Below, in pieces: positions 16,478-36,899 of a DNA stretch of 61,886 bases. The position numbers and the translations under genes were made by a program. Below the pieces are notes generated by a model. The model was not told the origin of the DNA, made no database searches, and worked only from the letters and a program-made list of their open reading frames with translations. Origin of the DNA: a virus; IMG/VR virus record IMGVR_UViG_3300012683_000009. One strand, 5' to 3'. Numbering within the stretch: position 1 is the first letter of the stretch; each line of letters opens with the position of its first letter.

Positions 16478-18084
16478 AGCTCGACACGAAGGCAATGATC
16501 TTCGAGAAGGCCAAGGCCGGATACCCGGCGCTGTACCTGGTCAGTTCTGAAGACCAGCGGTCGCTGAGAGAGATCAAGGAAGCTGCGGACGAGCTCAAGC
16601 GGACGCTCTACATCTGGACGCTCGGCAAGGGCCTGGTGAAGGAAGGGTCCAACACCAAGGGCAGAGGAGGAGCTCCAACGCCTATCGCCGACACGGAGAT
16701 CCCTCCTGGAGCTCTCGCCGAGATGGCGAAGGCACCGGAGAAGTCCATCTTCGTCCTCCGGCTGTTCCACCACTTTCTCGAAGCTCCGAACATCCAGTCG
16801 ATGCTCATCGACCTCATCCCGGACTTCAAGCTGAACGCCAAGATGCTCATCATCTTGACCCCGGTTCAGAAGCTGCCGCCGGAGCTGGAGAAGGAGTTCG
16901 CCCTCATCGAGACGGCGCTCCCCGACAAGCAGATGCTGGAGCGGGTGCTCACGGGCATCATCGTCGGCTCTAGACTGCCGGACGACAAGAAGCCGTCACC
17001 AGAGGTGAAGAAGCTTCTCATCGACGCTGCGGCCGGTCTCACCACACCTGAGGCTGACAACGCCTTCGCTCTGTCGCTCCTGCGCCCGTCCATTCAGAAG
17101 ACCGGAATGGTGTGGGATCCGCAGGTGGTGCTCGAAGAGAAGATGGCCGCTCTGAAGAAGACGGGTCTGCTGGAGTACATCCCGGCCGGCACCGTCAGCA
17201 TGCAGTCGGTCGGAGGCATGAAGGCGCTGAAGCGGTGGATCGCACTCCGCAAGCGGGCCTTCACCGAAGAGGCCAAGACGTTCGGCCTGCCGGCGCCCAA
17301 GGGCATCCTGATGGTCGGTCCTCCTGGCTCCGGTAAGTCACTGGGTGCGAAGGCAGTGAGCAACGAGCTCAACCTGCCACTCATCCGCTGCGACTTCGGC
17401 AAGCTCCTCGGCAGCCTCGTCGGCCAGTCGGAGGGCAACATGCGGAAGGCCATCGACGTCGCTGAAGCAGCCTCGCCGTGCGTCCTCTGGATCGATGAGA
17501 TCGAGAAGGCTCTCGCAGGCTCGTCGGGTGGTTCTCACGACTCAGGCGTAGGAGCTCGACTCCTGGGCTACCTGCTGACGTGGATGGCGGAGAAGACCTC
17601 CCCTGTCTTCGTCTACGCCACCGCCAACGACGTGACCAGTCTCCCGCCCGAGCTTCTCCGCAAGGGCCGCTTCGACGAGATGTGGTCGGTACTGCTCCCG
17701 AACGAGGAGGAGCGGAAGGAGATCTTCAACATCCACCTGAAGAAGCGTGGGCGTGGTGATCTCGTCGGTGACAAGTCGAAGAACAAGCAGGCCATCGACC
17801 TGGACCACTTCTCCAAGGACACTGCCGGGTTCTCCGGTGCTGAGATCGAGGCCGCCGTCATCGAGTCTCTGTTCCTCGCCTTCGATGAGAAGCGAGAACT
17901 GACCTTCATGGATCTCCAGAACGCCATCGACGACACGATGCCGCTCTCGACGACCATGAGTGGGAAGATCAAGGCCCTCGAAGAGTGGTGCCGGGACAAG
18001 ACCCGTTCCTCGAACGGCGACGACAGCTACAACATCGACGCCATCCTCAAGGCAGGAGGAAGCCGCAAGGTCGAGACCGTCTGA
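16474..18084 (+). CDS. AAA-family ATPase (classic clade) with about 300-aa N-terminal domain
   Basis: ORF 16237..18084 trimmed to ATG 16474 (AAGGAG RBS, ATGA overlap); Walker A GPPGSGKS, Walker B VLWIDEIE, SRH TANDVTSLPPELLRKGRFDE. Confidence 0.85.
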   Translation: MKLDTKAMIFEKAKAGYPALYLVSSEDQRSLREIKEAADELKRTLYIWTLGKGLVKEGSNTKGRGGAPTPIADTEIPPGALAEMAKAPEKSIFVLRLFHHFLEAPNIQSMLIDLIPDFKLNAKMLIILTPVQKLPPELEKEFALIETALPDKQMLERVLTGIIVGSRLPDDKKPSPEVKKLLIDAAAGLTTPEADNAFALSLLRPSIQKTGMVWDPQVVLEEKMAALKKTGLLEYIPAGTVSMQSVGGMKALKRWIALRKRAFTEEAKTFGLPAPKGILMVGPPGSGKSLGAKAVSNELNLPLIRCDFGKLLGSLVGQSEGNMRKAIDVAEAASPCVLWIDEIEKALAGSSGGSHDSGVGARLLGYLLTWMAEKTSPVFVYATANDVTSLPPELLRKGRFDEMWSVLLPNEEERKEIFNIHLKKRGRGDLVGDKSKNKQAIDLDHFSKDTAGFSGAEIEAAVIESLFLAFDEKRELTFMDLQNAIDDTMPLSTTMSGKIKALEEWCRDKTRSSNGDDSYNIDAILKAGGSRKVETV

Positions 18085-18134
18085 AGACGTCAGGCATTCG
18101 TAGTAGAGTTGTCCAACACGCAGAGAGGAAACAC

Positions 18135-18584
18135 ATGAGCCACTTCACTGAAATCAAGGTCAACTTCGACCAGAAGTACGAGCCTCAGCTCATCAACGCC
18201 CTCGAAGAGCACTTCGGGAAGGGCAACGTCGAAGTCCACGAAGATGGAGAAGACCTCAAGACGTACTACGGGGAGGTCAACCGGGCGAACTCCGGTCTCG
18301 GCAAGACCGAGAAGTGCCATCTCATCGTCCGCAAGGAGACGCAGGAGAAGGCAGCCGGTCGCGGCCTCGCTACCAACGACGCCGGCTACTACCGGACCCA
18401 GGACGGGAAGGGCTACAAGGTCTTCCTCGATCACGCCGGCTTCAACGACCGGCTCCAGGGCCTGGTGGCGCAGTCGTACGGCCTCCTCGTCGCCGAGAAG
18501 AAGCTCAAGGCGGAGGGCTACATGACCAAGCGAGTCCAGAAGGAGGATGGCGTGGTCCGCCTGGAGGCTCGCATCTACACGTGA
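18135..18584 (+). CDS. Hypothetical protein (149 aa)
   Basis: ORF 17985..18584 trimmed to ATG 18135 with GAGAGGAAA RBS. Confidence 0.5.
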   Translation: MSHFTEIKVNFDQKYEPQLINALEEHFGKGNVEVHEDGEDLKTYYGEVNRANSGLGKTEKCHLIVRKETQEKAAGRGLATNDAGYYRTQDGKGYKVFLDHAGFNDRLQGLVAQSYGLLVAEKKLKAEGYMTKRVQKEDGVVRLEARIYT

Positions 18585-18589
18585 AGAAG

Positions 18590-19612
18590 ATGCTTCGTGA
18601 GTGGGTCGAGAAGTTTCGACCCACTCATGCACGTGAAGAGCTTCGTGGATTGTGGAGGGAGCGAGAAGCTCTGACCAAGATCGGCGTCGACTACGCCTCG
18701 AAGAAGATGGACTCTTGGGGTGCTTTTGCCGTTCACGATGGAGCGAAGCTAGAGTTTCTCCGGATTGATGACTGCGATCATCTACCTGAGCTCCAGGAAA
18801 TGATGGATCGGAACGCTCGGCAGATCGCCGCTGCCATGGGAGTGCCTCCCGAGCTTCTTAGGGAGGTAGAGGAGGCTAACAGACGAAGCGAGGAAGACAT
18901 CGCTAGACTGCTGGCTCAATCGACCATAGGTGCCCCGATGCCCCAAGTTCAACGAGGCGTGAGTCAGTACGATGAGAACGGCAGGCGAGTCTCTGTTCCA
19001 GACGATGAGGTCATCGACAGAGTCGGAGCACTAGCTCGTCATATGGTCGCTCAGGGGTTGGCGTTCAACGCATCCCAGTTGCGACAGGAACAACTCGGTC
19101 AGTTCCCTGAGCGAGAAGAAGACCAATACGAGCCACAACCGTCGTCTACCGCTTTGGTGGAGATGAGGCTCATCGAACTAGAGGAGTGGGAAACCGTGGC
19201 ACGCACGACAACGACAAGGAGACGCAGACCGGCCGGCGGTAGAGCAAACGTCGGTGGGCCTGCGACGAAGAACGATCCGATCTTCGTCTGGGGCATGCAA
19301 TCGAGCAAGCCTCGGAACGGTGGACACTTCATCACCTACGAGGTCCGACTGAACACCGACGGCACGACGAGCTGCAACTGCCCTGGCTGGATCTTCAAGA
19401 AGAAGACCGACGACCGAGGCTGCAAGCACACCAGGCATCCTGAGGTGATGAACAACTTCAAGGACTACTTCCAGCGCCACCAGAGGGGCGAGCAGCTTCC
19501 GACGGTCGATCCTCCGGCAGGTGCCCAGTCGTCCACCACGGTTCAGCCTGCGACCCCAACCGCCAAGGACAACATGAAGGGGTTCGGTCGCCTCGTCATC
19601 TTGGACGACTGA
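18590..19612 (+). CDS. SWIM zinc-finger protein (about 340 aa; CNCPGW...CKH)
   Basis: ORF 18314..19612 trimmed; CxC-x(n)-CxH SWIM signature near C-terminus. Confidence 0.6.
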   Translation: MLREWVEKFRPTHAREELRGLWREREALTKIGVDYASKKMDSWGAFAVHDGAKLEFLRIDDCDHLPELQEMMDRNARQIAAAMGVPPELLREVEEANRRSEEDIARLLAQSTIGAPMPQVQRGVSQYDENGRRVSVPDDEVIDRVGALARHMVAQGLAFNASQLRQEQLGQFPEREEDQYEPQPSSTALVEMRLIELEEWETVARTTTTRRRRPAGGRANVGGPATKNDPIFVWGMQSSKPRNGGHFITYEVRLNTDGTTSCNCPGWIFKKKTDDRGCKHTRHPEVMNNFKDYFQRHQRGEQLPTVDPPAGAQSSTTVQPATPTAKDNMKGFGRLVILDD

Positions 19613-19785
19613 TGTTCTTCCTCTGCCGAGTCGTAGCGTGGGTGCTGTACACGGCCCACTTCTATGAGCACGGGGCGTGGGGGTCGGACTACATTGCCAT
19701 CGCTTTCTACGCCAACTTCAACGAGGAGAAGGCAAAGGTCCTGGCAGACAAGATGTTCCCCGAAGAAACGAGAAAGGAAAACTGA
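19613..19785 (+). CDS. Small hydrophobic protein (57 aa; MFFLCRVVAWVLY...), missed by the 60-aa ORF cutoff
   Basis: ATG overlaps upstream TGA (TGATG); high GC3; stop abuts the next ATG. Confidence 0.4.
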
Positions 19786-19986
19786 ATGGCAAGCGAGAAG
19801 ATGATCACGATCGACTTCGACAAGAAGGGCGGATCGAAGATCGAAGCACACGGGTTCGCTGACAACACGTGCCTCAAGGCGACGAAGAGTGTCGAAGAGG
19901 CTCTGGGTGTGGTCGGCAAGCAGGACCTGAAGCCCGAGGGCATGAAGGCCCCGGACCTCACGCAGTCTCTGAAGGTCGGCGGCTGA
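19786..19986 (+). CDS. Hypothetical protein (66 aa)
   Basis: ORF track; RBS. Confidence 0.5.
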   Translation: MASEKMITIDFDKKGGSKIEAHGFADNTCLKATKSVEEALGVVGKQDLKPEGMKAPDLTQSLKVGG

Positions 19987-20013
19987 GCAGGGTCTCACCG
20001 TCGAAACAACCGC

Positions 20014-20050
20014 AGGCCCGGCTGCCTTCTTGGGGCCGGGCCTTTCTCTT
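20014..20050 (+). terminator. Rho-independent terminator (9-bp stem AGGCCCGGC/GCCGGGCCT plus TTCTCTT)
   Basis: Seen in sequence. Confidence 0.55.
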
Positions 20051-20058
20051 GGGCACTC

Positions 20059-22395
20059 ATGATCCCGAACCACAAAGAACGAAACGTTCAGACCTCTGGT
20101 CTGGATGAGCAGGCTGTCTTCGGCATCTCTGCCGACAACCAAGCTCACATCATGACGATCCTCCGTGACACGCTCTACACGGACAAGATCCTCGCAGTTC
20201 TTCGAGAGTACAGCGCCAACGCCTGGGACTCTCATCGGATGAACGGGAAGGACGAGCTGCCCATCAAGGTCACGCTCCCCAGTCCGGCAGAGCCGACTCT
20301 CGCCATCCGTGACTTCGGTCCTGGCCTCACGCAGGAGGAAGTCTTCACCGTCTTCACTCAGTACGGAGCCAGCACCAAGAGGACCACCGACAAGGCCGTC
20401 GGAACCCTCGGCATTGGGTGCAAGAGCGGCTTCGCCTACTCCGACAGCTTCAGCATCGACTCGTACAACAACGGGACGAAGAGCACGTACGTGGCGGTGC
20501 TCGACAAGTCAGAGAAGGGCATGATCTCGCTGCTGAACCGTGAACCGTGCGGAGAAGAGTCGGGCCTCTGCATTCAGATTCCGGTCAGGCCCGAGGACAT
20601 CCCGCTGTTCATCGACAAGGCGAAGGGCCTCTTCAGGTACTTCCTCCCGAAGCCGGACATCAACACCGAGGTCGCCGACATGGCGGAGATCTCGATGGAG
20701 ATGAAGACTGGGGTGCTCACCAAGTCTGGCGGCTGGGTGGCGGTGATGGGGTGCATCCCCTACCGCATCAACATCGATCAGCTTCAGGCCATCCGCAGCA
20801 AAGAAGAGGACACCGTCAGCATCAAGAGGTTCCTCTCCGGGCTGAGCGGGCTGCTGTTCTTCAAGATCGGCGAGATCCACATCGTCGCCAACCGAGAAGA
20901 GCTCCGCTACACGAACGAGACCAAGACCGCCCTCGTGAATCGGTTCAACGATCTCATCGAGGAGTACGTCACCTCGGCTCTGAAAGACATCCAGGAGTCC
21001 GGGCTCACCTACTTCGAACGGCGAATGCGCCTCATGAAGTTCGAGGCTCTGAAGTTCGCCATTCCGGAGGTGTTGACGGAGTTCCTGAACCCGAACCTCG
21101 ACGTGAAGCACGTGAAGGACTTCTCCTTCTGCCTGACGGACTACAACCGGCACAAGCAGATCATCGGCAACTCTACAGACACCCTCCACATCCACGACGA
21201 GACCACCCTCGTCCTCAAAGATGACCCCAGGGCGTTCAGTGGCTTCAAGCTCGAAGGCCGCCCATACATCGTCAAGATCAGCCCGAAGCCAGGGAAGAAT
21301 GCAGAGCCCTGGTCGAAGATGATGCCCAAGTTCGAGAAGTTCCTCGAAGAGTACAAGATCACGGGCGTCAAGATCATCAAGCTCAGTGAGTGCGCTTGGG
21401 AAGCTCCGAAACGTGACTACGAACGTGGAGAGGTGAACGAGAAGCACAAGGTCACCACCTTCAAGTTCAACCCTGACTCGCACGGCAGTGGGTCCGATCT
21501 TTGGACCATCACGAAGCACAAGCCGGATGCCGCCGACGTGTTCGTGGTGCTGGAGAAGTTCAAGACCACCAAGAAAAGCACCTACAATCCCACGAGGAGG
21601 GAGAAGTACAGGTTCAGGGACAAGTATCACGAGACGAAGGCTTGGCTGGAGTTCTTCGGCGAGAAGATGCCTGCCGTCTACGGGTACAAGTCGACCGAGA
21701 AGAAACCGGCGTTGGAGAAGGACTTACTCGGTACCGAGTTCATCGAATGGGCTGCTGCGAGGAAGAAAGAGCTCACCGCCAAGGCGGAGATGAATCCCGT
21801 CATCTTGGAGATGGCGGAGATGGTGGCCTGGGACGATCTGGCCGAGGAAATCTACCCGAGCACGAATGAGAACCGCATCGCTTCTGCTCCGAAGCTGAAG
21901 GGGCTCACAGAGGCACTGGGGAAGAACCACCCTCTGGTTGCCGTCCTCGAACCGTACGTCGAGGCAGAGCTGAAGAAGAAGGAGTCCTGGTCCGGCTTCA
22001 ACTCCATGGAGAGCTTCATCGTCTCCAGCCAGGCACTCTGCAAGATGAAAGACAAGGCCCTAAAGGCCTTCCGGAAGAAGCTGACGAAGACCGTCGCCAA
22101 GTACCCATTGCTGAGGTCGGTACAGGGCGGCATTTCGAACCTACTGCGTGACTCGTACCCGCACTGGGTTCCCTACGTGAAGATGATCGACAAGGAGCTG
22201 AAAGATGGAAGCCGAACCGAAGTACACGATGACCAACGAGTCGCTGACCCTGGTGTGGCAGGGCAAGACGCACACAGTCCGGAGCTCACAGCCGAACTTC
22301 GAGAGCCTCCGGCGGGCGATCTCCCAGAAGGACTGGGACAGTATCCCCAAGTTCCTGACGGTCAACAGAACGCTGGGGGAGTGGGCGCAGGGTGA
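20059..22395 (+). CDS. rIIA: rIIA-like GHKL (Bergerat-fold) ATPase; ORF stays open to 22395 but coding signal (GC3) switches to the rIIB frame at about 22205
   Basis: ORF track; N box EYSANAWD, G1 IRDFGPGLT, G2 GTLGIGCKSGF; immediately followed by an rIIB-like gene as in T4. Confidence 0.7.
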   Translation: MIPNHKERNVQTSGLDEQAVFGISADNQAHIMTILRDTLYTDKILAVLREYSANAWDSHRMNGKDELPIKVTLPSPAEPTLAIRDFGPGLTQEEVFTVFTQYGASTKRTTDKAVGTLGIGCKSGFAYSDSFSIDSYNNGTKSTYVAVLDKSEKGMISLLNREPCGEESGLCIQIPVRPEDIPLFIDKAKGLFRYFLPKPDINTEVADMAEISMEMKTGVLTKSGGWVAVMGCIPYRINIDQLQAIRSKEEDTVSIKRFLSGLSGLLFFKIGEIHIVANREELRYTNETKTALVNRFNDLIEEYVTSALKDIQESGLTYFERRMRLMKFEALKFAIPEVLTEFLNPNLDVKHVKDFSFCLTDYNRHKQIIGNSTDTLHIHDETTLVLKDDPRAFSGFKLEGRPYIVKISPKPGKNAEPWSKMMPKFEKFLEEYKITGVKIIKLSECAWEAPKRDYERGEVNEKHKVTTFKFNPDSHGSGSDLWTITKHKPDAADVFVVLEKFKTTKKSTYNPTRREKYRFRDKYHETKAWLEFFGEKMPAVYGYKSTEKKPALEKDLLGTEFIEWAAARKKELTAKAEMNPVILEMAEMVAWDDLAEEIYPSTNENRIASAPKLKGLTEALGKNHPLVAVLEPYVEAELKKKESWSGFNSMESFIVSSQALCKMKDKALKAFRKKLTKTVAKYPLLRSVQGGISNLLRDSYPHWVPYVKMIDKELKDGSRTEVHDDQRVADPGVAGQDAHSPELTAELREPPAGDLPEGLGQYPQVPDGQQNAGGVGAG

Positions 22396-23191
22396 GTTCA
22401 CGTACAAGAACGAGAAGTTCTTCTTCAAGGACGAAGAGCTTCCGTCGAATCTGAACCAGAAGATCGTTCAGATGGCGACCGAGGGGCAGGATCCCACGGT
22501 GATGTTCCGGTTCTACGAGAGGCTGAGCCGAAATCCCTCGTTCCGCTCAGTGCAGCAGCTCTTCAAGTTCCTCGACCACGGGAACATTCCGTTCACCAAG
22601 GATGGGTGCTTCCTGGCGTACAAGAGCGTTCGGAGCGACTACAAGGACGTTCACTCCGGAACCTGGGACAACAAGCCTGGTGCGGTCAACGAGATGCCTC
22701 GGAATCAGATCTCCGATGATCCGAACCACGCCTGCCACGAAGGCTTCCACGTCGGAGCTCTGAAGTACGCAAGGGGCTTCAGCGGGTCGAAGATGGTCGT
22801 CTGCAAAGTCGACCCGGAGCACGTGGTCTGCGTCCCGTACGACTCGTCGCAGGAGAAGATGCGAGTCTGCAAGTACAAGGTCCTCGGTGAGTGGAGCGGG
22901 CAGCCTCTCGACGAGCTTCTCCACGACGATGAGGCCCTGGCCGAGCCGCAGCCGAAGGAGCACTCGACTCCGCCTCTGTCGAAGAAGCCGAAGCAGGAGG
23001 TCAAGGTCCAGAAGAAGTCAGTGACCAAGGACTTCAAGAAGTACGACAAGATGACCACGGCGGAGCTGATGACCTGCTCCCTCGATGAGCTCCGGCAGTA
23101 CGCCGGCAAGGGTCTGGAGATCGTAGGCGCCTCGAAGATTCCAGGAGGCAAGGTCCGACTCGTCACGGCCATCGAGAAGGTCCGGAAGTGA
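22205..23191 (+). CDS. rIIB: rIIB-like protein (328 aa)
   Basis: ORF track; from-memory similarity to the T4 rIIB C-terminal half (ours VQQLFKFLDHGNIPFTKDGCFLAYKSVRS...MRVCKYKVLGE; remembered T4 counterpart segments in the rIIA/rIIB finding). Confidence 0.6.
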   Translation: MEAEPKYTMTNESLTLVWQGKTHTVRSSQPNFESLRRAISQKDWDSIPKFLTVNRTLGEWAQGEFTYKNEKFFFKDEELPSNLNQKIVQMATEGQDPTVMFRFYERLSRNPSFRSVQQLFKFLDHGNIPFTKDGCFLAYKSVRSDYKDVHSGTWDNKPGAVNEMPRNQISDDPNHACHEGFHVGALKYARGFSGSKMVVCKVDPEHVVCVPYDSSQEKMRVCKYKVLGEWSGQPLDELLHDDEALAEPQPKEHSTPPLSKKPKQEVKVQKKSVTKDFKKYDKMTTAELMTCSLDELRQYAGKGLEIVGASKIPGGKVRLVTAIEKVRK

Positions 23192-23541
23192 CGTACGACC
23201 GGGTGGTGCTCGCCCACTACCCATTCCCAGCAGAGATCCGCTCAGTGACTGTCCTCGGTGATCACACTGTGCCGCAGGGAGCACTGAAGCGGAATCTCTG
23301 GGTCTTCATCCTGATGGAGTACGGCGGCAAGCTGAGGGTCTACCTCGAAGAGAAGCACACCGAGGCCAGACTCTCGGCCCGCCATGGGTGGGCGAAAGAC
23401 GGCAGTTCCACGTACAGCCGAATCAACAAGAGGGACACGGCCGTGCAGAAAGAGCCCGAGGTCCCTGACATGTTCACGAACCTCGTGGTCGACCACTTCC
23501 GGAAGCAGATCTGGTTCGAGAAGTGGGTAGGGAGAGCCTGA
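23188..23541 (+). CDS. Hypothetical protein (117 aa), GTG start
   Basis: ORF track; GTGA overlap. Confidence 0.5.
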   Translation: MTYDRVVLAHYPFPAEIRSVTVLGDHTVPQGALKRNLWVFILMEYGGKLRVYLEEKHTEARLSARHGWAKDGSSTYSRINKRDTAVQKEPEVPDMFTNLVVDHFRKQIWFEKWVGRA

Positions 23542-24596
23542 TGCCTGATGAGAGAAACGAACTGACAGCAGCCCTGTTCCGGCGGGGAGCTCTGATGGAT
23601 CTGCACATCGGGCGCTGGACAGCGATGAAGAAGATGCAGCCCAACGACTTGCTGATGGGGGAAGTTGACCTCAACACCATCTACCTCGGGCACAAGAAGC
23701 TCCTCCCGAAGAAGGCAACGGAGAAGCTCGTCGAGATCGAAGGCAAGGCTCGTACAGCCCTGGCCAGCAAATCGCTGGAGTTCCCCCTCGCCGGGGCTCG
23801 TTTCGTGACCTACGGAACCATCCCCGACGTTGTTGATCGACTCCGGCAGCTCAAGGTCGATTGGAATCGAGAGATCGATTCCCTCGTCGTGGACTACCCG
23901 ACACTCCGAGAGACACAGTTGGCTCTCCTGGAGACCCAGGCTCAGAGGTTCATCCAGGAGGAGCTCCGGAAGTTCGGAGCGGTCAGCACGGCCGACGCCT
24001 GGCAGAACCGCAAGGGCGAGCTCGACGAGTGGCTCAAGAAGCAGAGAGCTTCGAACCTCAGCTTCTACCCACGTGACGTGGAGGAGCTGCGGAAGAAGTT
24101 CAGCTTCGGCTGGCGCATGTTCCAGGTCTCTTCTCTAGACGGCGTCGATGACCTCGACGTGGAAGAGGTCAGAGCGGCCCAGGATCAGCTCAGGGCCGAT
24201 CTTCAGGGCTGGGTGAGGTCTGCGGCTGCCTCAATGCACCAGGCCCTTGGGGAGGCTGCTGCGAACGCCAGAAGCATGTTGGAGAAGAACGGCAAGCTGA
24301 CACCGAGGAACCTCCAGCCGCTGTTCAACGCCTTCGAGAACTTCCTCAAGGTGGACTTCACTGGTCAGTCGACGTTCCGAGCGACCATCGACACCATCAA
24401 GCAGCGGTTCCTCATCCAGAACGCTGACGGCTCATACGACCTGCCGAAGATGGCAGAGAGCATGGGAACTGAAGCTCGCCAGGCGGAGTTCGGCAACCTG
24501 CTCGTCAGCATGGCCGACCTGGCAGTCGATGAGACGGCTGCCAAGGCCGGCATCAACAGCCTCCGAGCAGACTTCGGACGGCTGGTGGAGCTCTGA
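23541..24596 (+). CDS. Hypothetical protein (351 aa)
   Basis: ORF 23523..24596 trimmed to ATG overlapping upstream stop (TGATG). Confidence 0.55.
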   Translation: MPDERNELTAALFRRGALMDLHIGRWTAMKKMQPNDLLMGEVDLNTIYLGHKKLLPKKATEKLVEIEGKARTALASKSLEFPLAGARFVTYGTIPDVVDRLRQLKVDWNREIDSLVVDYPTLRETQLALLETQAQRFIQEELRKFGAVSTADAWQNRKGELDEWLKKQRASNLSFYPRDVEELRKKFSFGWRMFQVSSLDGVDDLDVEEVRAAQDQLRADLQGWVRSAAASMHQALGEAAANARSMLEKNGKLTPRNLQPLFNAFENFLKVDFTGQSTFRATIDTIKQRFLIQNADGSYDLPKMAESMGTEARQAEFGNLLVSMADLAVDETAAKAGINSLRADFGRLVEL

Positions 24597-24602
24597 AACA
24601 CT

Positions 24603-24633
24603 GAGAGGCGAAGCTGCCTCTCTTTTAGCTCTT
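24603..24633. terminator. Bidirectional terminator between convergent blocks: GAGAGGC-loop-GCCTCTC then TTTT-AGCTCTT
   Basis: Seen in sequence; carries the recurrent TTTAGCTC tail motif. Confidence 0.6.
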
Positions 24634-24837
24634 CTTCTCCGTGACGCCGTCGACGTAGTCGGCGACCTTGTCCTTCGCCTTGCCGAGGAGAATGACAGCC
24701 TCAGTCAGGCGAACGTCTGCCGGCATCTTCTCGACTTCCTGCATGGCCTTGAGGATGGCCGTCTCCGCAGGGACGTACAGGTCTTGGTAGACCCGTCGAG
24801 GGTGCTCCCGACCTTTGTTGTCGCCCTTGGGCATCAT
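24625..24837 (-). CDS. Hypothetical protein (70 aa; start MMPKGDN)
   Basis: ORF 24625..24912 trimmed to ATG forming ATGA overlap with upstream stop. Confidence 0.5.
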   Translation of the reverse strand: MMPKGDNKGREHPRRVYQDLYVPAETAILKAMQEVEKMPADVRLTEAVILLGKAKDKVADYVDGVTEKKS

Positions 24838-25268
24838 ACGGGCTTCTCTCCGACGCCGAAGTACGGCTTGGCGTGGCCAGCCTTGATCATGAGCTGGTTC
24901 AGGTTGGTCCACTCGCCCAGTGGGTCGTAGAAGGCCGACTTGGGATCTGCGACGTTGTGGAACTTCACCGGCAGCCAGAGCTCTCCCAGAATGCGACCTC
25001 CGTACTTGTCGTTCTGGTCCTTGTAGCTCTTCAGCCGAAGCTGCTTCGAGCTCACGGAAGCCTTCAGGAGGCTCTCCAGGAAGAGCTGGGCCACCTTCGC
25101 CGCCGGCGCCGTTGCTCCCTGCAACTCGGGAGTGTTGATGCCGTACATGCGGATGTTCTGCCCGACGGAGATCTGGAAACCGAGGTCGATGTCCACGGAC
25201 ACCGTGTCACCGTCGTGGTTCTTCACGTACGTCGCTCGATACCAGTAGAGATCGTCGTCTGAGATCAT
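24834..25268 (-). CDS. Thermonuclease (staphylococcal-nuclease-like, SNase) (144 aa)
   Basis: ORF 24834..25367 trimmed; SNase motifs DGDTVSV...RMYGINTPE. Confidence 0.75.
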   Translation of the reverse strand: MISDDDLYWYRATYVKNHDGDTVSVDIDLGFQISVGQNIRMYGINTPELQGATAPAAKVAQLFLESLLKASVSSKQLRLKSYKDQNDKYGGRILGELWLPVKFHNVADPKSAFYDPLGEWTNLNQLMIKAGHAKPYFGVGEKPV

Positions 25269-25423
25269 GCGAGCTTCACCCTCCTCCCAGTGAACTGGCA
25301 CTTCGTGCAGACAGAGACCTTGGGGTCCTTCGCCGAAGGAATCATGTTGCTGTTGCACTTCGGACACTTCATCTCCCCTGCCTTCGGGGCGGGCCGGTAG
25401 GCCCTTCTGTCGACGTCGTTCAT
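25265..25423 (-). CDS. Zinc-ribbon protein (52 aa; CPKC...CTKC)
   Basis: ORF 25265..25489 trimmed to ATG with GGAGGATGAC RBS. Confidence 0.5.
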   Translation of the reverse strand: MNDVDRRAYRPAPKAGEMKCPKCNSNMIPSAKDPKVSVCTKCQFTGRRVKLA

Positions 25424-25424
25424 G

Positions 25425-26138
25425 TCATCCTCCGAAGACGGTTGCGCCTTCCGGAGCGGGAGCCTCTTCCGGCGGCGGGCCCTGGTCAAGGCCTGACAGC
25501 TCCTTGCCTTCGGCCTTGACGAGCTCTTCCTTCATCTTCTGCTCCTTCGCCTCCCGCATCTTCTTGGCCCGCTCTTCTGCGGCGGCCTTCTGGGCCTCGA
25601 TCCTGTGCTGGCGTTCGGCCCTAATCTCCTCTTCGGCTTCCTTGACGAGGAGCTTCTGATCCTCTGAGCTGAGGCCGAGCTTCACGAGCATCTTGGCGAA
25701 GGCCCGGAAGTTGACCTCCATCGAGTCTGCGAGAACACCGTCGTTGTACTGGAGGGCGTTGATGTCCTGAGCCAGTCGGCGGCTCATGGCTGTGTCGAGT
25801 CGCTTGTACTCCTCGAACTTCTGGTCGAGAGGCTTGTTCTTGTAGTCCTCCTCCGCCAGCATGAGAGGGATCTTCTTCGGGTCGATGCCCTTGTTGACGA
25901 GCCGCTGGTAGCGCTCTCGCATGATCTTCTGGCGCTTGAGCTCGATGGCGTTCGGCTTCTTGTCGGCGAGGATGTACGTGTTGCCGTTCTCGTCGACTGC
26001 CTGCTTCTTCCCGTCTGCTCCGACGGTGACCGGGAGGAACTTGCCGTCGATCTCCACCATCTGGGTGGGTTCGACCTCTTCCGGCTCTGCTGCGACGACC
26101 TTCTTGTCTTCCTCTACGACAGTGGAGTCAGGGCTCAC
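25425..26138 (-). CDS. Hypothetical charged coiled-coil protein (237 aa)
   Basis: ORF track. Confidence 0.55.
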   Translation of the reverse strand: MSPDSTVVEEDKKVVAAEPEEVEPTQMVEIDGKFLPVTVGADGKKQAVDENGNTYILADKKPNAIELKRQKIMRERYQRLVNKGIDPKKIPLMLAEEDYKNKPLDQKFEEYKRLDTAMSRRLAQDINALQYNDGVLADSMEVNFRAFAKMLVKLGLSSEDQKLLVKEAEEEIRAERQHRIEAQKAAAEERAKKMREAKEQKMKEELVKAEGKELSGLDQGPPPEEAPAPEGATVFGG

Positions 26139-26551
26139 GACTGAACTTCTCCTTGGGTAGTGCTCTTGGAGGACTTCTTCTTCGTATCTGCTACCACGGG
26201 CGCCGGCACGGGAACAGGTGCTGGGGCGGTGATGACGACAGGCTGGACACCTGGTGGAACTGCCAGAGGACCTGGCGGAGTTGCCAGACCACCAGGGACG
26301 AGCAGAGGCATTCCCATGATCTGCTCGATCTCTTTGGTCACAGCTTCCAGACCACTGAAGAGCTCCTTCACGACCTGCTCGAAGAACTCGTCTCCGACCC
26401 GAACCTTCTCGTCGGTCATGAGCACCTTCTTCGCCTCGGCCCCAGCGACAGGACGGAAGTTCGTCTCCAGGTGGTCGATGAGGTGCTGGTAGATGGCCGC
26501 CTTGCTCCTGGCGGTGGAGACTCTCTTCTGAAGTTCTTGGAACGTGCTCAT
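26135..26551 (-). CDS. Hypothetical protein with Pro/Ala/Val-rich tail (138 aa)
   Basis: ORF track; ATGA coupling. Confidence 0.5.
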   Translation of the reverse strand: MSTFQELQKRVSTARSKAAIYQHLIDHLETNFRPVAGAEAKKVLMTDEKVRVGDEFFEQVVKELFSGLEAVTKEIEQIMGMPLLVPGGLATPPGPLAVPPGVQPVVITAPAPVPVPAPVVADTKKKSSKSTTQGEVQS

Positions 26552-26662
26552 ATCAATTCCTCTTCGGTCTTCGGTACAAGGTGAAGTTGTGACGGTGATA
26601 CGCAGCCGCTGCTCAGGGACCCCGCTGCCACTGCCCGCCGCAGCCGCCTGTGATGGTGAGGA

Positions 26663-27355
26663 CTACCGTTGGCCGATGGTCACGGGCGTGTTGTTCTTTC
26701 TTAGCTCCCGCCCCTGGCGGTGAGAGTCGAGAGCTATGTCAGTCCTCCGCTTGAGCTTCATGCCCTTGCCGATGGTCGCCCAGGCCGAGCTCGTCTTGAT
26801 GAGGCCAGCCTTGTAGAACTGCTTCACCGCCTTGATGTGATCGCAGTCCGTCCTGCGAACCGAGTGGTGGAACTGCCAGTCCTTGCACTCACAGGCGAGA
26901 CGCCCTGACGGCAGGACCTTGACCTTGTACTCTTTGCCCTCGGTCGTGCGGCTCGGAGCGACAGCGATGATGGTCTTCGAGGTGAGCTGGCCGCCGTAGT
27001 TCTTCACGTACTTCTTCAGCTTCGGGTCGGTGAGATCATGACCCAGCATGGCCCTCTGGAACGGCCGGTTCATCAGGTCCTTCTCGAAGCCCGGCCAGTC
27101 CTTCACCTCGGCAGTGTGGAAAGCCTCCGCCTTCTCCTTGTGCTCTTTGCCGGCGGTCTTCTGTTTCTCTCGTGCCAGCCTCCGAGCTCTCGCCTTGTCC
27201 TCTCCAGGAGTCGTCGGAGGCATGCCCTTCGCCACCCGTGCCTTGTTGCCATGGACGGGGCAGGTGGTGAGCCTCGCACTCGGGCAGATGCATTCCGGCT
27301 CAGCAGCGAGCTTCACGAGCTCTTGAGCGAAGGATGGGAGAAGGGCCTCAAGCAT
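26663..27355 (-). CDS. SWIM zinc-finger protein (230 aa; CECKDWQFHH...CDH)
   Basis: ORF track; SWIM signature. Confidence 0.55.
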   Translation of the reverse strand: MLEALLPSFAQELVKLAAEPECICPSARLTTCPVHGNKARVAKGMPPTTPGEDKARARRLAREKQKTAGKEHKEKAEAFHTAEVKDWPGFEKDLMNRPFQRAMLGHDLTDPKLKKYVKNYGGQLTSKTIIAVAPSRTTEGKEYKVKVLPSGRLACECKDWQFHHSVRRTDCDHIKAVKQFYKAGLIKTSSAWATIGKGMKLKRRTDIALDSHRQGRELRKNNTPVTIGQR

Positions 27356-27360
27356 GGCGT

Positions 27361-28020
27361 TCAGGATGTCAGAAAGACCTGGATGCGGCCAGCGAGAGCT
27401 GCTCCGTGGGCGGTGTCTCTCAGGATGTTCTTGAGAGGGTAGATGTGCATGCCCTTGAGCCGCTTGGCGACTTCAGGCCCCTTCGCCTTCTCCATCGCCA
27501 GGTAGCGAGCATCGAACCGGTGGTACTTCACGTAGATGTCGGCGCTGGAGTCGAGCTCTCGGAAGAGCTTCTCCAGGACGATGGAGAGGTTCTTCGTCGA
27601 CCACGAACCGACTCGGCCGTCGACCAGAAGGTTGGCGTTCACGCCCTTCTTGCAGTGAGGGCAGAAGCCGACGCCTCCCTTGAGGTAGTTCGACGTGATG
27701 ATCTTGCCACAGCCCTGCGTGGCGTCTGCGTTCATGCACCAGAAGGCGAGGTCGTCACCACCACCGTTCAGACGGCGACCGCTCTCCCAGAGCTTCACGA
27801 CGACGGTGTTGGGGCCGTTCATCGTGCGATCTGCGCCGAACAGGACTTCGATCTTGAACTTCGCCCTGATGGTGAGCTCTCCCATGCCGACTTCGGCACC
27901 GGTCTTGACGAGCTCGTCTCTCGACTTCTGGGCCGCTCGCTGGGAGGTGATGTCGCCTGCCCGACGCATCTCGTCGGACGGGCCACTCTCGGGCAGCTTG
28001 AGCATCTCTCGAACTCCCAT
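27361..28020 (-). CDS. Hypothetical Cys-rich protein (219 aa)
   Basis: ORF track. Confidence 0.5.
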   Translation of the reverse strand: MGVREMLKLPESGPSDEMRRAGDITSQRAAQKSRDELVKTGAEVGMGELTIRAKFKIEVLFGADRTMNGPNTVVVKLWESGRRLNGGGDDLAFWCMNADATQGCGKIITSNYLKGGVGFCPHCKKGVNANLLVDGRVGSWSTKNLSIVLEKLFRELDSSADIYVKYHRFDARYLAMEKAKGPEVAKRLKGMHIYPLKNILRDTAHGAALAGRIQVFLTS

Positions 28021-28022
28021 GA

Positions 28023-28694
28023 TCAGCTTCCTCCGCCAGATGTTGGGACAGCGCCCCCAGCGAACTTCAGAGGCCCTCCCTGAAGAGGCTTCGGGATGTT
28101 CTGCTCCCTGTACGTGTGAGGGAGAGGCATCTCCGTGATGTCCGTCGGACGCCCCTTCTCATCGACTCCACGAGCCACGACCTTGAGCTCTGGGCCTCTT
28201 GCTCGTGGAGGCGGCACTGGGTCAGGCCCCAGTCTCTCTGGAGCACGAGGAGTAGCGGTCGTCAATTGCTTGACCTTCTTCCCCGCCATGAGACGTCGAG
28301 CGACTGCCTGGTCGGTGTCGTAGCGAGGCTGAGATGGAACTTGAGCCTGCTGCGCCGGAGCGAGCTCAGGCTCGGCCTCATTCAGAACCTTGACGACTGC
28401 ACCAACCGCCTCGACAAGGCTCGCAGCGTTCTTCGCCTCGATTCCGAGGAACCATCCGAAGACCATGCCGCCTTGACGCCGTACGTAGCGGCGACAGATG
28501 TGGAAGTCGGAGAAGACTGGGTTCCCGTCGGTGGCAAGGAGGAGCTTGTCGACGACGGCGACCCAAGGCGCCTCTTGCCCAGGAAGCTGACGACACAGGA
28601 TGGAAACGCTCCCACCCCTGCCCTTGACGTCGACCGGTTGGACGAGTCCTGTCCCATACAGCGCCTCCCTCAGCGATTCGAGTGCCTTACTCAT
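28023..28694 (-). CDS. Hypothetical protein (223 aa)
   Basis: ORF track. Confidence 0.5.
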   Translation of the reverse strand: MSKALESLREALYGTGLVQPVDVKGRGGSVSILCRQLPGQEAPWVAVVDKLLLATDGNPVFSDFHICRRYVRRQGGMVFGWFLGIEAKNAASLVEAVGAVVKVLNEAEPELAPAQQAQVPSQPRYDTDQAVARRLMAGKKVKQLTTATPRAPERLGPDPVPPPRARGPELKVVARGVDEKGRPTDITEMPLPHTYREQNIPKPLQGGPLKFAGGAVPTSGGGS

Positions 28695-28971
28695 CGTTCC
28701 TCACGATCCGAAGCCGTGGCTCTTCTTTGACGTTGTCTCGAAGAGCTTCGAGCTCGTCGACTACTCTCTCTGCCGCATTGATGACGATGTCGAAGGTGTT
28801 CATCAGAGCGTGGGCCCCAGCCCATTCATGAAGCGGCGTGAGCTTGCTCTTTGACGAGTCTTGGACATCGACAATCCTCTTGAAGAGGATATCACGAGAC
28901 TGGAGAAGAGCCTGAACGTCCGCCTTCTTCTCGGCGAGCTCTTCCTCCAGTTCTCGACTCGTGAGCTCCAT
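28687..28971 (-). CDS. Hypothetical helical protein (94 aa)
   Basis: ORF track. Confidence 0.45.
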   Translation of the reverse strand: MELTSRELEEELAEKKADVQALLQSRDILFKRIVDVQDSSKSKLTPLHEWAGAHALMNTFDIVINAAERVVDELEALRDNVKEEPRLRIVRNDE

Positions 28972-28977
28972 GAGACC

Positions 28978-29262
28978 TCAGTGGACGGCGACGTTCGGTT
29001 GCTCCGCCGGCTGCTTGGTGAATGTCTCCTGGAGCTGCTCCGGCGTCTTCTTGTACTCGACCTTCAGGCCGCCGTACTCGACAGAGACGAGAAGACCGTT
29101 CTTCGAGGAGAGCTCGAAGTGGTAGTCGAGCTGAGGCTGCATCCGGATCTTCTCTCCGACGCAGCACGGGCCTACGAGAATCTTCTCCCCGTCGGGGAAC
29201 TCGTGGACCTTGATGTCCTCCGCCTTGATGCCCCTCGTGTAGCAGTTCTCACAGCTAGCCAT
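28978..29262 (-). CDS. Cys-rich protein (94 aa; start MASCENCY)
   Basis: ORF 28978..29292 trimmed to ATG with AAAGGAAACGG RBS. Confidence 0.5.
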   Translation of the reverse strand: MASCENCYTRGIKAEDIKVHEFPDGEKILVGPCCVGEKIRMQPQLDYHFELSSKNGLLVSVEYGGLKVEYKKTPEQLQETFTKQPAEQPNVAVH

Positions 29263-29431
29263 TGCCGTTTCCTTTCGACCGATCGAACTCACGGTAGATG
29301 AGCTCGCGAATCAACTGGGCAACGGATACCCGCCGGCGACGAGCTTCCTTCTCGAAGAACTCATGAACGTCCCTCTCCACTCGGACAAGGAACGTGTGGT
29401 CCTTCTTTGCCTTCTCGTCTTCAGCAGCCAA
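29255..29431 (-). CDS. Ribbon-helix-helix (Arc/CopG-like) protein, 58 aa, TTG start; not in the ORF track
   Basis: Manual translation: (L)AAEDEKAKKDHTFLVRVERDVHEFFEKEARRRRVSVAQLIRELIYREFDRSKGNGNG; GGAGGA 8 nt upstream of TTG; stop overlaps next ATG; coordinates +/- few nt. Confidence 0.5.
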   Translation of the reverse strand: MAAEDEKAKKDHTFLVRVERDVHEFFEKEARRRRVSVAQLIRELIYREFDRSKGNGNG

Positions 29432-29494
29432 ACCCAGTCCTCCACGACCATCAGGTCGTGTATACGGTCAGTATCAGTCCGAATACAACCGATG

Positions 29495-30028
29495 TCAAGG
29501 AGTGGTGGCGTAGGGGTCGTAAGTCTCGATCTTCTGAGACGAAACCTGGAGGCAGACGGGCTGGTCATCGGCGTAGAGCACAGTGCTCTCCATGACTCGG
29601 CCATCGACGGGCTTGACGCAGCCAGGCTGGTCGAGGTCGTTCCTGAACCGACGGATGCGGTACCCAGGCACGAACCACTCTTGCTTGATGTCCTCCATCC
29701 TGAAGTAGAGCCTGTTCATGCGATCGATGAGCGCCGGGTGCTGGCTGATGACGAGCTTCTCCTTCTCGTCGAAGAGGTCGACCTTCGTTGGCCAGCGGAG
29801 CTTGTCGAGGTCGAGCTGGGACTCCTTCAAGACCCGAGCCTTGTCGACCTCGTCGCCGATCTCCTCGGCCAGCTTGGTGAGCTGATCCCTCGTTGCGTCC
29901 TTGAAGGGGTCATTGTCGGGGATGAGATCGGCGGCTCCGTCTGGCAAGTTGCCCCACTTCTGGAGCATCTGAGCCATGTGCTTGTCGACTAGACCGCTCT
30001 TCAGAATCTTCTCGGTGAGTGGCTTCAT
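29495..30028 (-). CDS. Hypothetical protein (177 aa)
   Basis: ORF track. Confidence 0.5.
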   Translation of the reverse strand: MKPLTEKILKSGLVDKHMAQMLQKWGNLPDGAADLIPDNDPFKDATRDQLTKLAEEIGDEVDKARVLKESQLDLDKLRWPTKVDLFDEKEKLVISQHPALIDRMNRLYFRMEDIKQEWFVPGYRIRRFRNDLDQPGCVKPVDGRVMESTVLYADDQPVCLQVSSQKIETYDPYATTP

Positions 30029-30576
30029 TTCAGGTTCCTTTCGTCCATCAGCATCCGAAGGCTGAGCTTGATGTCGTCTTCCCCTGCCTCGGATGCCGTG
30101 AGCAGAAGAACATCGGGTGGGATCTCATCGACCTGCATGACGTCGATACCGCAGAGCTGGGAGAGATCCCAGAACTTGTCGACGTCGAGACTCGCTCGAA
30201 GGAGGTTGACGTTGCTCAGAAGGAAGGCCCGAGCCACGAGCCGCTTCTGGGTGAGAATGCCGAAGGCCCGGAAGAGGTACTCGTGGAACGAGTCGAGGGC
30301 CGTCGAGTCGAACTCCTGCATCTCGGTGTTGCGAGCGCTGGCGTAGAGGTCGTTGGACTTCATCTCCAACGGGCCAGTCGTATCGATGGCCGAGTAGCGG
30401 GAGATCTTGATGGGCTTGCCCACCTCGATCACGACCTTCTGAACTCCGCCCTGGCCCAGGATGGACTCGAACCGCAGGACGATGTCCTTCCTCGTCGAGG
30501 GCAGAGGAGACTCTTCGTGAATCAACTTCAGCGACTGCTTCTGTCCGTCGCCGAGTGATGGAGGGATGTCAGCCAT
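30025..30576 (-). CDS. Hypothetical protein (183 aa)
   Basis: ORF track; ATGA coupling. Confidence 0.5.
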   Translation of the reverse strand: MADIPPSLGDGQKQSLKLIHEESPLPSTRKDIVLRFESILGQGGVQKVVIEVGKPIKISRYSAIDTTGPLEMKSNDLYASARNTEMQEFDSTALDSFHEYLFRAFGILTQKRLVARAFLLSNVNLLRASLDVDKFWDLSQLCGIDVMQVDEIPPDVLLLTASEAGEDDIKLSLRMLMDERNLK

Positions 30577-30775
30577 GGTTCGGGAACTCCTTGTCGACGA
30601 ACGAGAACGGGTCGTGCTCGACCTTGAGCTGTTCGCCCGACTTCGTGTTCATGAAGTGAAGCACCACGATCTCAGTCACCGTGGTGCTCCGATCCTCTGC
30701 GTACTTCTTCATCCACTTCAGCAGATCAGCGGGAACCCGAAGGTTGAGCCGAGCTCGCTTGGGAGCCTTTTTCAC
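30569..30775 (-). CDS. Ribbon-helix-helix DNA-binding protein (68 aa; RLNLRVPADLLKWMKKYAE), GTG start
   Basis: ORF track; RHH beta-strand/helix pattern; GGAAGGTG RBS. Confidence 0.6.
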   Translation of the reverse strand: MKKAPKRARLNLRVPADLLKWMKKYAEDRSTTVTEIVVLHFMNTKSGEQLKVEHDPFSFVDKEFPNHG

Positions 30776-30881
30776 CGTTACACCTTCCGATCAGGTAGCC
30801 GTTGCAACCTACTGCGAAGAGGATGAGAAGCATCACTGTGTAGAGGATCTTGTCCAGCCCTCTGAACATGCCGGGTTCCAT
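30726..30881 (-). CDS. Possible small transmembrane peptide (51 aa; MEPGMFRGLDKILYTVMLLILFAVG...)
   Basis: 3' part of ORF 30726..31133; TGATG overlap with upstream stop; overlaps RHH start by 50 nt, so weak. Confidence 0.3.
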   Translation of the reverse strand: MEPGMFRGLDKILYTVMLLILFAVGCNGYLIGRCNGEKGSQASSAQPSGSR

Positions 30882-30997
30882 CAGAGCCTCGTAGCCAGGA
30901 CGTAGATCACGAAGGCGACACCGGCTGCTGCGAGAATGCCGCAGCCGATGATCGTCCATGGATGGAACGTCGTCATGTAGTTCTTGAACTTCTGCAT
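30881..30997 (-). CDS. Small transmembrane protein (38 aa; MQKFKNYMTTFHPWTIIGCGILAAAGVAFVIYVLATRL), holin-like candidate
   Basis: 3' part of ORF 30881..31222 starting at ATG with GAGGAGACCC RBS; directly downstream of the hydrolase gene. Confidence 0.4.
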   Translation of the reverse strand: MQKFKNYMTTFHPWTIIGCGILAAAGVAFVIYVLATRL

Positions 30998-31005
30998 GGG
31001 TCTCC

Positions 31006-31569
31006 TCAGTCGTGGGTGTAGAAGACGACCTGTGGCACCAGGTTGCCGTAGCCGACGGAGATGTCCTTGTCGAAGAAGTTGGTGCCTCCGGCCTGGGCGA
31101 TGTGAACGAAGTCGAGACCAGGAAGCACGACACAGACGTGGCCGATGCCGCCTGGGTTCTTCCAGAGACCGACGGTCGGGAAACCCTTCGAAGCCCTGCC
31201 CCGAGCCTGGATCTTTCCGCACTTCATCCAGCCGAAGTCGAGAGCGTGTTGCTCGAACCAGTCGCAGACACCGTTGGCCGAGAGCTCCTTGCCCTTGCCC
31301 ATCGGCACCTCGATGCCGGTCGCCGGGTCGACCCAGTGAGGCACCTCGACAGACATCGCCTTGGTGAAGTCCCAGAGGAAGATGTTGCAGTACGTCTCCA
31401 GGCCGTTGTTCGGGTTGTTGTCGTGGCCCTTGATGTAGCGAGGGTTGTTCTCGACGTCGAACTGCTTGGCCGCAACGACGAGGTTCACCGCCGCCCGATC
31501 CTCTGGACCATTGACGAAGTCCGGGGTCGCTTCGACCCAGGCGTTGGGGTTCTTCATGCTCTCGTTCAT
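31006..31569 (-). CDS. Putative peptidoglycan hydrolase (CHAP/NlpC-P60-like Cys-His), endolysin candidate
   Basis: ORF track; conserved C (YCNIFLWD) and H (GHVCVV) arrangement; followed by small TM genes. Confidence 0.5.
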   Translation of the reverse strand: MNESMKNPNAWVEATPDFVNGPEDRAAVNLVVAAKQFDVENNPRYIKGHDNNPNNGLETYCNIFLWDFTKAMSVEVPHWVDPATGIEVPMGKGKELSANGVCDWFEQHALDFGWMKCGKIQARGRASKGFPTVGLWKNPGGIGHVCVVLPGLDFVHIAQAGGTNFFDKDISVGYGNLVPQVVFYTHD

Positions 31570-32367: not shown

Positions 32368-32377
32368 GATGTTCTCC

Positions 32378-33307: not shown

Positions 33308-33315
33308 GGGGCCTT

Positions 33316-34459: not shown

Positions 34460-34472
34460 TTCGTTGTTCCTT

Positions 34473-36867: not shown

Positions 36868-36899
36868 GACGTTCGCCCTGGCCCAGCCCTCAGGGGACT

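Follow-up and report, generated by a model that had tools for sequence, protein, structure and literature searches.

The virus record IMGVR_UViG_3300012683_000009 of IMG/VR, a stretch of 61,886 nucleotides hereafter called the window, contains on its plus strand a phage rIIA gene followed directly by an rIIB gene, and the two genes share 191 nt that are open in both of their reading frames. Both the cistron and the triplet code were defined with the help of rIIA and rIIB; to our knowledge, the molecular mechanism of rII is still unknown. The features of the locus are collected in Table 1. An initial annotation of the window had placed two open reading frames (ORFs) of 778 and 328 residues exactly where we find them, and had described a two-frame overlap of 190 nt, which we measure as 191 nt. 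The switch that it reported near 22205 in GC content at third codon positions (GC3) is also present, with ~0.8–0.9 in the rIIA frame before this point and ~0.9 in the rIIB frame after it. We found that the two genes are a genuine phage rIIA–rIIB pair and a new member of known families. The pair itself is ordinary; the putative rIIA tail overprinted on the start of rIIB is the new element, and the literature that we searched contained no report of an rIIA–rIIB overlap.

Table 1. Features of the window at and around the rIIA–rIIB locus.
Feature	Position	Strand	Remarks
rIIA gene	20059..22395	+	778 codons + TGA; predicted folded GHKL/Hsp90-like body (aa 1–716), then predicted acidic disordered tail
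Bergerat N box, E50-Y-S-A-N54-A-W-D57	20206..20229	+	E50, N54, A55, W56 and D57 invariant in 119 homologues; aligns with T4 rIIA 'RELITNMIDAH'
G1 box, D85-F-G87-P-G89	20311..20325	+	D85, G87 and G89 invariant in 119 homologues; 'RDFGPG' identical in T4 rIIA
G2 box/ATP lid, G115-T-L-G118-I-G120-C-K122-S-G-F125	20401..20433	+	G115, G118, G120, K122 and F125 invariant in 119 homologues; aligns with T4 'GGFGLGSKSPF'
rIIB Shine-Dalgarno AAGGAG	22192..22197	+	7 nt 5' of rIIB ATG; within rIIA codons Lys-Glu
TGA in rIIB frame	22199..22201	+	two codons 5' of rIIB ATG; rIIB frame open only from 22202
Overlap, probably dual-coding	22205..22395	+	191 nt; rIIB codons 1–64; rIIA codons 716–778 = putative tail DGSRTEVHDDQRVADPGVAGQDAHSPELTAELREPPAGDLPEGLGQYPQVPDGQQNAGGVGAG
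rIIB gene	22205..23191	+	328 codons + stop; +1 frame relative to rIIA
rIIA stop TGA	22393..22395	+	third base of rIIB Gly63 (GGT) + GA of Glu64
rIIB C-terminal region	22907–23188	+	aa 235–328; variable acidic or Lys-rich linker, then conserved module '..AELM.CS[LI]DELRQYAGKGL.IVGASKIPGGK.ALV..I.KVR'
117-aa ORF	23188–23541	+	start overlaps rIIB stop by 4 nt
DUF3150-family gene	23523–24596	+	PF11348 on orthologues; synteny in relatives
Terminator-like hairpin + T-run	24603..24622	+	only plus-strand one in scanned 19500–24800; after DUF3150 gene
AAA+ ATPase (PF00004) ORF	16237–18084	not given	phrog_8638 match
ORF with SWIM-like zinc-finger motif 'CNCPGWIFKKKTDDRGCKHTRH'	18314–19612	+	read from translation; no PHROG match
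DUF2997	19786–19986	not given	in rII synteny block
tRNA-Ser(cga)	3062–3149	+	ARAGORN only; below Rfam gathering score
tRNA-Arg(tct)	10926–10999	+	ARAGORN + Rfam
tmRNA gene, phage-borne	42765–43149	+	ARAGORN tag peptide ANDNVELADSPVRLAA*; Rfam RF00023 151 bits, full model

The window rIIA matches the PHROGs family phrog_612 (E=7e-96), with residues 1–692 covering profile positions 1–706 of 725, and its N-terminal residues 1–353 align with T4 rIIA at 27% identity in BLASTP (E=9e-27). In published work, rIIA has a GHKL ATPase at its N-terminus and a C-terminal domain that is variable (PMC7824862). The Bergerat-fold N, G1 and G2 boxes that the initial annotation read in the translation are real, as their motif residues are invariant in the homologues and align with T4 rIIA. 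An AlphaFold2 (AF2) model built on the homologue alignment has a mean predicted local distance difference test score (pLDDT) of 83.8, and its top solved matches in Foldseek are the Hsp90-family chaperones Hsp90 (Hsc82), TRAP1, GRP94 and HtpG (E~1e-12, ~500–680 aligned columns). Identity to this family is just 11–16%, with TM-scores of 0.2–0.46; the modelled likeness is one of fold rather than membership, and no chaperone function is implied. Among sequence profiles, the Pfam HATPase_c model in our local copy remains below its cut-off (E=0.0075–0.028), the NCBIfam HSP90 and sacsin models match the ATP-binding domain weakly, and every curated profile scores well short of its cut-off. Sequence searches of the PDB returned no match for rIIA or rIIB. 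The initial annotation had named a match of the GHKL protein to defence ATPases as grounds for refuting its reading; this alternative was checked with PADLOC, which gave only weak GHKL-level TmtA matches (20.6 and 16.9 bits) and none to the MORC, Gabija or PARIS models; the best of these compares with a PHROG score of 324 bits, and the rII identities stand. One further rIIA homologue, the 1070-aa protein P0093, is ~300 aa longer than the others and has a match to PF14528 LAGLIDADG_3; it probably carries an intein or a homing-endonuclease insertion within rIIA.

The window rIIB matches phrog_609 (E=7e-68) and aligns with the core of T4 rIIB, about residues 88–310, at 34% identity over 223 aa (E=4e-44). 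Both BLASTP comparisons with T4 that the initial annotation proposed are thus significant, and the T4 rIIB string that it quoted is correct and aligns as claimed. PF26926 Phage_T4_rIIB is annotated, in precomputed form, on the rIIB orthologues of relatives; our local Pfam copy gave nothing meaningful for the window rIIB or for its C-terminal extension. T4 rIIB has an N-terminal region of ~87 aa that is missing from the window protein, whose alignment begins at T4 residue 88, but the window protein has a C-terminal extension of ~100 aa instead. The missing T4-type N-terminus is a difference in domain architecture and no argument against homology of the rIIB core. The N-terminus that the window rIIB does have is homologous to that of relatives whose rIIA and rIIB do not overlap. 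Its C-terminal extension contains a conserved '...DELRQYAGKGLEIVGASKIPGGK...' module common to relatives, and linker and module are also found in L001–L003, L007–L011, L013, L014 and L016–L024. To the eye, the module looks like a helix-extended-helix of the HeH/SAP/Rho-N type, which is an impression from its sequence only. No pattern of correlation was found between the type of rIIA tail and the charge of the rIIB C-terminal region. According to published work, rIIB acts against RexAB, and gasdermin systems of bacteria sense it as well (PMC10312443); both rII genes are discussed in the context of overcoming RexAB-type exclusion and of the rapid-lysis phenotype seen when they are mutated (PMC10312443, PMC7824862).

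In T4, rIIA and rIIB, the classic rII cistrons and anti-RexAB 'lysis inhibitor' pair, encode homologous proteins and have the same order, orientation and adjacency as the window pair. This T4-like order, to which the initial annotation had drawn attention, also holds in 22 related loci with both genes and in the phages RcXuper and Mildred21. The junction itself is different. Between the T4 cistrons lies a spacer of 11 nt, with the end of rIIA at 12 and the start of rIIB at 168903, whereas the window rIIA extends 191 nt past the rIIB start in another frame and acquires a putative overprinted acidic tail that T4 rIIA does not have. The other cultured phages have a 17-nt spacer (RcXuper) and an 8-nt overlap (Mildred21). 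The rIIB frame of the window is closed upstream by a TGA, and rIIB is therefore no in-frame continuation of anything.

Our homologue search covered 5.8 billion proteins and returned a graded series of rIIA homologues. We examined the DNA of 13 homologues with a long rIIA C-terminus, drawn from at least 11 samples, which together with the window make 14 overlap-type loci (class I); profile scans of viral and metagenome contigs with the rIIB alignment yielded 6 new loci. In 14 of 14, rIIB lies in the +1 frame and the overlap measures 176–299 nt, and the rIIA proteins of the 13 relatives are between 84% and 37% identical to that of the window. The relatives reside on viral contigs of 160–220 kb. 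A tblastn search of cultured phage genomes found no close relatives; the best matches there are 25–41% identical and serve as outgroups. Each overlap-type rIIB has its own start codon, most have a stop in the rIIB frame 1–7 codons upstream, and a purine-rich, Shine-Dalgarno-like motif precedes the start in nearly all 14 loci when judged by eye, that of L013 being weak. Other relatives have a second architecture (class II), in which rIIA ends '...IDKG' and its stop lies 0–9 nt from the rIIB ATG.

These independent occurrences settle one explanation for the overlap, namely that a sequencing or assembly indel near 22150–22220 had removed the true rIIA stop or split one gene; the initial annotation had listed a sequencing indel among the possibilities. 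Such an error is plausible a priori for a single metagenomic contig, and nothing else speaks for it. It is excluded here because independent assemblies share the overlap: the same architecture is present in the 13 other contigs, which come from different assemblers (Logan, JGI, NCBI, ENA), the identical 778-aa rIIA is listed from JGI, Logan and ENA, and the overlap persists at 37–84% protein identity. We consider the probability of an indel to be negligible.

The overlap has also affected how these genes are recorded. In the public gene calls of 12 of the 13 relatives (L007–L014 and L021–L024; for the thirteenth, L016, no gene calls were supplied), the long rIIA is kept and rIIB is shortened to 234–318 aa. 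The shortened rIIB calls begin after, or just before, the rIIA stop, with the loss of ~50–100 conserved N-terminal residues. The overlap is thus the reason that rIIB is truncated in public annotation, and automatic annotation of the overlap-type family is systematically wrong on rIIB.

An open frame of this kind could arise neutrally: the stop at the gene boundary is lost, a GC-rich frame with few T at the relevant positions stays open for ~60 codons by chance, and the tail is translated junk. The window has the composition for it. Its genome is 59% GC, T is rare at the third positions of rIIB, and only a T at such a position can create a stop in the rIIA frame; long spurious ORFs are common in that relative frame within the window. 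A 63-codon open frame is accordingly not improbable in the window by itself, with P=0.17 when its own rIIB is shuffled synonymously, and since an open run arises in 17% of such shuffles the window alone cannot decide between chance and selection. Across the window and the other high-GC loci, the shuffles leave the frame open in 7–23% of trials.

The informative loci are those of lower GC content, L012 and L013 (43% GC), L021 (49%) and L022 (52%). Here stops in the rIIA frame occur at ~7–11 per 100 codons across the rest of rIIB and are absent from the overlap. In L012 (GC3 0.53), 26 of 264 downstream codons and 0 of 57 overlap codons are stops in the rIIA frame (Poisson P 0.0036, shuffle P 0.0034). 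The corresponding counts are 30/267 and 0/61 in L013 (GC3 0.55; Poisson P 0.0011, shuffle P 0.0014), 27/308 and 0/58 in L021 (GC3 0.50; Poisson P 0.0062, shuffle P 0.05), and 20/283 and 0/98 in L022 (GC3 0.61; Poisson P 0.0010, shuffle P 0.0019). Stops turn dense within a few codons past the end of the tail. We further counted codon pairs at risk, defined as pairs whose second codon starts with AA, AG or GA: pooled over the four loci, a third-position T is found in 0 of 85 at-risk pairs in the overlap versus 103 of 387 downstream (Fisher p=7e-11). Harmless third positions of the overlap still carry T, and in the third reading frame stops are not avoided. Stops in the rIIA frame are thus avoided specifically, and therefore truncation of the tail appears to be selected against. 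The initial annotation had held that only the rIIB frame is coding in the overlap and that the end of rIIA is ambiguous. The comparison with relatives indicates instead that selection keeps the rIIA frame open, and because it does, the true end of rIIA is most likely the TGA at 22393–22395.

The composition of the overlap carries a second signal. The third codon position of rIIB is the first codon position of the tail, and it is enriched in G and depleted in T in the overlap only, in 14 of 14 loci, with G fractions inside versus outside the overlap of 0.64 versus 0.39 in L023 (p=3e-5) and 0.47 versus 0.22 in L021. Overlap-free relatives do not show this bias. The tails of all 14 loci are acidic and rich in Gly and Pro, with a net charge of -5 to -18, 14–27% Asp+Glu and 3–10% Lys+Arg, and all 14 are predicted to be disordered. 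The window tail of ~62 aa is acidic and rich in Gly, Ala and Pro; in the AF2 model, the last confident helix spans residues 700–716 and ends exactly where rIIB begins, and residues 728–778 have a pLDDT of 34–49 and no secondary structure. Two controls were available. Farther along rIIB, this frame yields peptides that are net-basic or neutral, and the same frame over the homologous rIIB N-terminus of 9 overlap-free loci gives peptides of net charge +1 to +9 with 14–25% Lys+Arg and 1–4 stops (Mann-Whitney p=0.0001 for the charge of overlap-type versus overlap-free loci). The overlap-free frame is basic and interrupted even at high GC content, for example by a stop at codon 36 in L001–L003 and L019. 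Because both controls give non-acidic peptides, the acidic tails are no mere shadow of the rIIB sequence, and selection appears to bias the tail frame towards an acidic, disordered composition. A neutral run-on accounts for neither the stop-free overlaps of the lower-GC relatives, nor the G enrichment and T depletion at positions that are unable to create stops, nor the uniformly acidic tails set against a basic, interrupted frame in overlap-free relatives, and we regard it as unlikely.

Acidic ends are found in rIIA proteins beyond the overlap-type loci. In a census of 109 rIIA homologues anchored at the W..Y[IV]K.[IM]D motif, 26 have tails of at least 45 aa with the rIIB-shadow signature and a mean net charge of -9.3, and another 34 have tails of 15–44 aa, many of them dedicated acidic ends such as '...TPVSDEEEDEEDE' or '...EEEEDDIDIFEDD'. 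The rIIA of sister uncultured phages belongs to the same family (~38–42% identity) and its body ends at the same motif; these sister lineages share the rIIB N-terminus of the window, and many of their rIIA proteins are also acidic-tailed. In the class II sisters, with the junction 'IDKG-TAG-ATG', the tail is either missing or encoded by sequence of its own ahead of rIIB, whereas the putative window tail is overprinted; read in the alternative frame, the start of their rIIB is basic and interrupted by stops where that of the window is open and acidic. An acidic C-terminal end thus appears to be recurrent in the rIIA family and to be encoded in two ways, as dedicated poly-Asp/Glu or by overprinting. 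The rIIB frame is the ancestral one and the tail frame the overprinted one, since class I, class II and T4 have homologous rIIB N-termini. A rough neighbour-joining tree shows the overlap fixed throughout the clade of the window and scattered elsewhere.

Taken together, we conclude that the overlap probably codes in both frames under selection and so provides rIIA with an overprinted acidic tail, a reading to which we assign a probability of roughly 0.72. The constraint appears to act on the openness and the composition of the tail frame and not on a specific sequence. Several observations weigh against this conclusion. The window and the other high-GC loci individually fit chance, with shuffle P values of 0.07–0.23. 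The loci are phylogenetically related, L012 and L013 being sisters, and for this reason the pooled P values overstate their independence. Synonymous-codon identity over the 14 loci, as observed/expected, is 1.13 in the overlap, 1.05 in the rIIB core and 0.98 in the rIIA body; synonymous-site conservation is thus only modestly raised, which is not decisive alone and would also suit a neutral run-on, and no specific tail sequence is strongly constrained. Essentially no tail is present in 49 of the 109 homologues (~45%), which end 'KG*', and T4 rIIA has no acidic tail either, so that a tail is not universally needed. The deep nodes of the neighbour-joining tree are unresolved, and the tree is therefore compatible both with an ancestral overlap and with one that has arisen repeatedly. 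Finally, we infer translation of the tail from the sequence alone and its biochemical role by analogy only.

If the overlap is dual-coding, rIIA and rIIB would be made independently as two proteins. rIIA would be translated from the ATG at 20059 to its TGA, giving a 716-aa Hsp90-like GHKL body followed by the ~62-aa disordered acidic tail; its frame has no stop at the cistron boundary and runs on through 63 codons that overlie rIIB codons 1–64 out of frame. rIIB would be initiated internally from its own Shine-Dalgarno sequence and ATG. The tail would then serve in the same role as the dedicated poly-Asp/Glu tails of the sister lineages, most likely as an electrostatic handle for partner binding or for auto-regulation of the ATPase. 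In cytosolic Hsp90, too, the C-terminus is an acidic, disordered tail that binds partners; this MEEVD tail, like the acidic tails of single-strand-binding proteins of phages, offers an analogy for that of rIIA. Ribosomes that finish rIIA would cross the rIIB initiation site, and this may tune the rIIA:rIIB ratio.

The last point could in principle be the whole reason for the overlap, with rIIA ribosomes that cross the rIIB initiation region setting rIIB translation, by occluding or unmasking the ribosome-binding site or by blocking termination-reinitiation at internal starts, and with the peptide irrelevant. The rIIB Shine-Dalgarno sequence and ATG lie inside the rIIA ORF in 14 of 14 loci, the constraint is on openness more than on sequence, and the tail length varies from 58 to 99 codons, all of which suits such a role. 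RNA folding, however, found no significant or conserved structure at the junction (z=0.29, empty consensus), and both a frameshift stimulator and a hairpin sequestering the ribosome-binding site are rejected on this ground. Regulation alone also does not predict the acidic Gly/Ala/Pro-rich composition, the T depletion at sites that carry no stop risk or the difference from class II, and leaves unexplained the parallel with dedicated poly-Asp/Glu tails and the need for at least 57 open codons. We consider it improbable as the sole explanation.

A programmed +1 (or -2) frameshift in the overlap, which would produce an rIIA–rIIB fusion and make the long rIIA frame the unshifted product, was likewise raised by the initial annotation, together with a gene fusion. 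It would fit the +1 relation in every overlap-type locus and the rIIA stop context GGG-TGA in 7 close relatives, where Gly-tRNA could in principle re-pair on GGT. Read in the rIIB frame, the rIIA stop is formed by GGT-GAx in 7 of 9 close relatives and by AGT-GAA in L012 and L013. The stop contexts nevertheless vary by lineage (CAG TGA, ACT TAG, GGC TAA, ATA TAA, GCC TGA, GGT TAG), and no conserved slippery motif is found at the junction or the stop of the overlap-type loci, nor any stimulatory RNA structure. rIIB has its own ATG, with a Shine-Dalgarno-like motif in nearly all loci and an upstream in-frame stop in most, and frameshifting at the rIIA stop would exchange the conserved N-terminus of rIIB for other sequence. 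The cultured phages checked, RcXuper and Mildred21, have separate rIIA and rIIB genes, and the composition of the tail would be unexplained. A frameshift or fusion is unsupported by these data and in our view very unlikely. The profile phrog_609 itself (1055 positions, annotated 'RIIB') matches both the rIIA N-terminus (positions 22–303) and rIIB (positions 816–1044); it represents either a naturally fused rIIA–rIIB family or a mixed cluster, and could hint at fused relatives.

Overprinted viral genes that encode disordered segments are well known from small viruses such as phiX174 and from RNA viruses. The window overlap resembles them in its length and out-of-frame relation, in the strong conservation of the ancestral frame (rIIB), and in a novel frame that is biased, disordered and weakly constrained in sequence. 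Unlike overprinting in small viruses, it extends the C-terminus of a large pre-existing protein in a ~190 kb double-stranded DNA (dsDNA) phage with no obvious compression pressure; as the phage is a large dsDNA virus, pressure on genome size cannot explain it. It is also unlike known overprinted genes in that its tail parallels tails that are conventionally encoded in sister lineages. As a dual-coding region, the overlap would be a clear-cut example of overprinting in a large dsDNA phage, in which the historic 'cistron divide' of rII is blurred throughout a whole clade of large uncultured phages, A reading ~60 codons into B, and its tail would be a concrete, mutable element for probing rIIA function. 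More tentatively, and with only a modest chance of being right, the acidic tail may be a functional rII module that was gained at least twice by different routes and that, in the overlap lineages, makes direct contact with rIIB or with a target in the host or its defences; it could, for instance, mimic nucleic acid or form an auto-inhibitory lid over the Hsp90-like ATPase. The interleaved coding would then also lock the two cistrons together and couple their translation. If this were true, the tail would be a handle on the molecular mechanism of rII.

The rII genes are part of a conserved block. In the window (16237–24622) and in L007–L014, the AAA+ ATPase gene is followed by two ORFs, DUF2997, rIIA, rIIB, the ~117-aa ORF, the DUF3150 gene and the terminator-like hairpin, and no terminator was found between rIIA and rIIB. 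The virus may be the large T4-like or jumbo myovirus that the initial annotation read from the gene order, and its relatives do reside on contigs of 160–220 kb. However, when ten further large ORFs of the window were compared with PHROGs, 8 had no match, 2 matched only unannotated or generic ATPase families, and no structural genes were identified. The window also encodes the tmRNA and tRNA genes listed in Table 1. Directly downstream of the rII operon, at ~24800–38000, the AT skew changes sign and most high-GC3 ORFs are on the minus strand; this region is a divergent gene module. In L021 and L022, both distant overlap-type relatives, a Thy1 (ThyX) gene is located upstream of rIIA, and a protein with WGR, PARP_reg and PARP catalytic domains is encoded ~0.7–1 kb downstream of rIIB (6851–8226 in L021 and 7228–8391 in L022).

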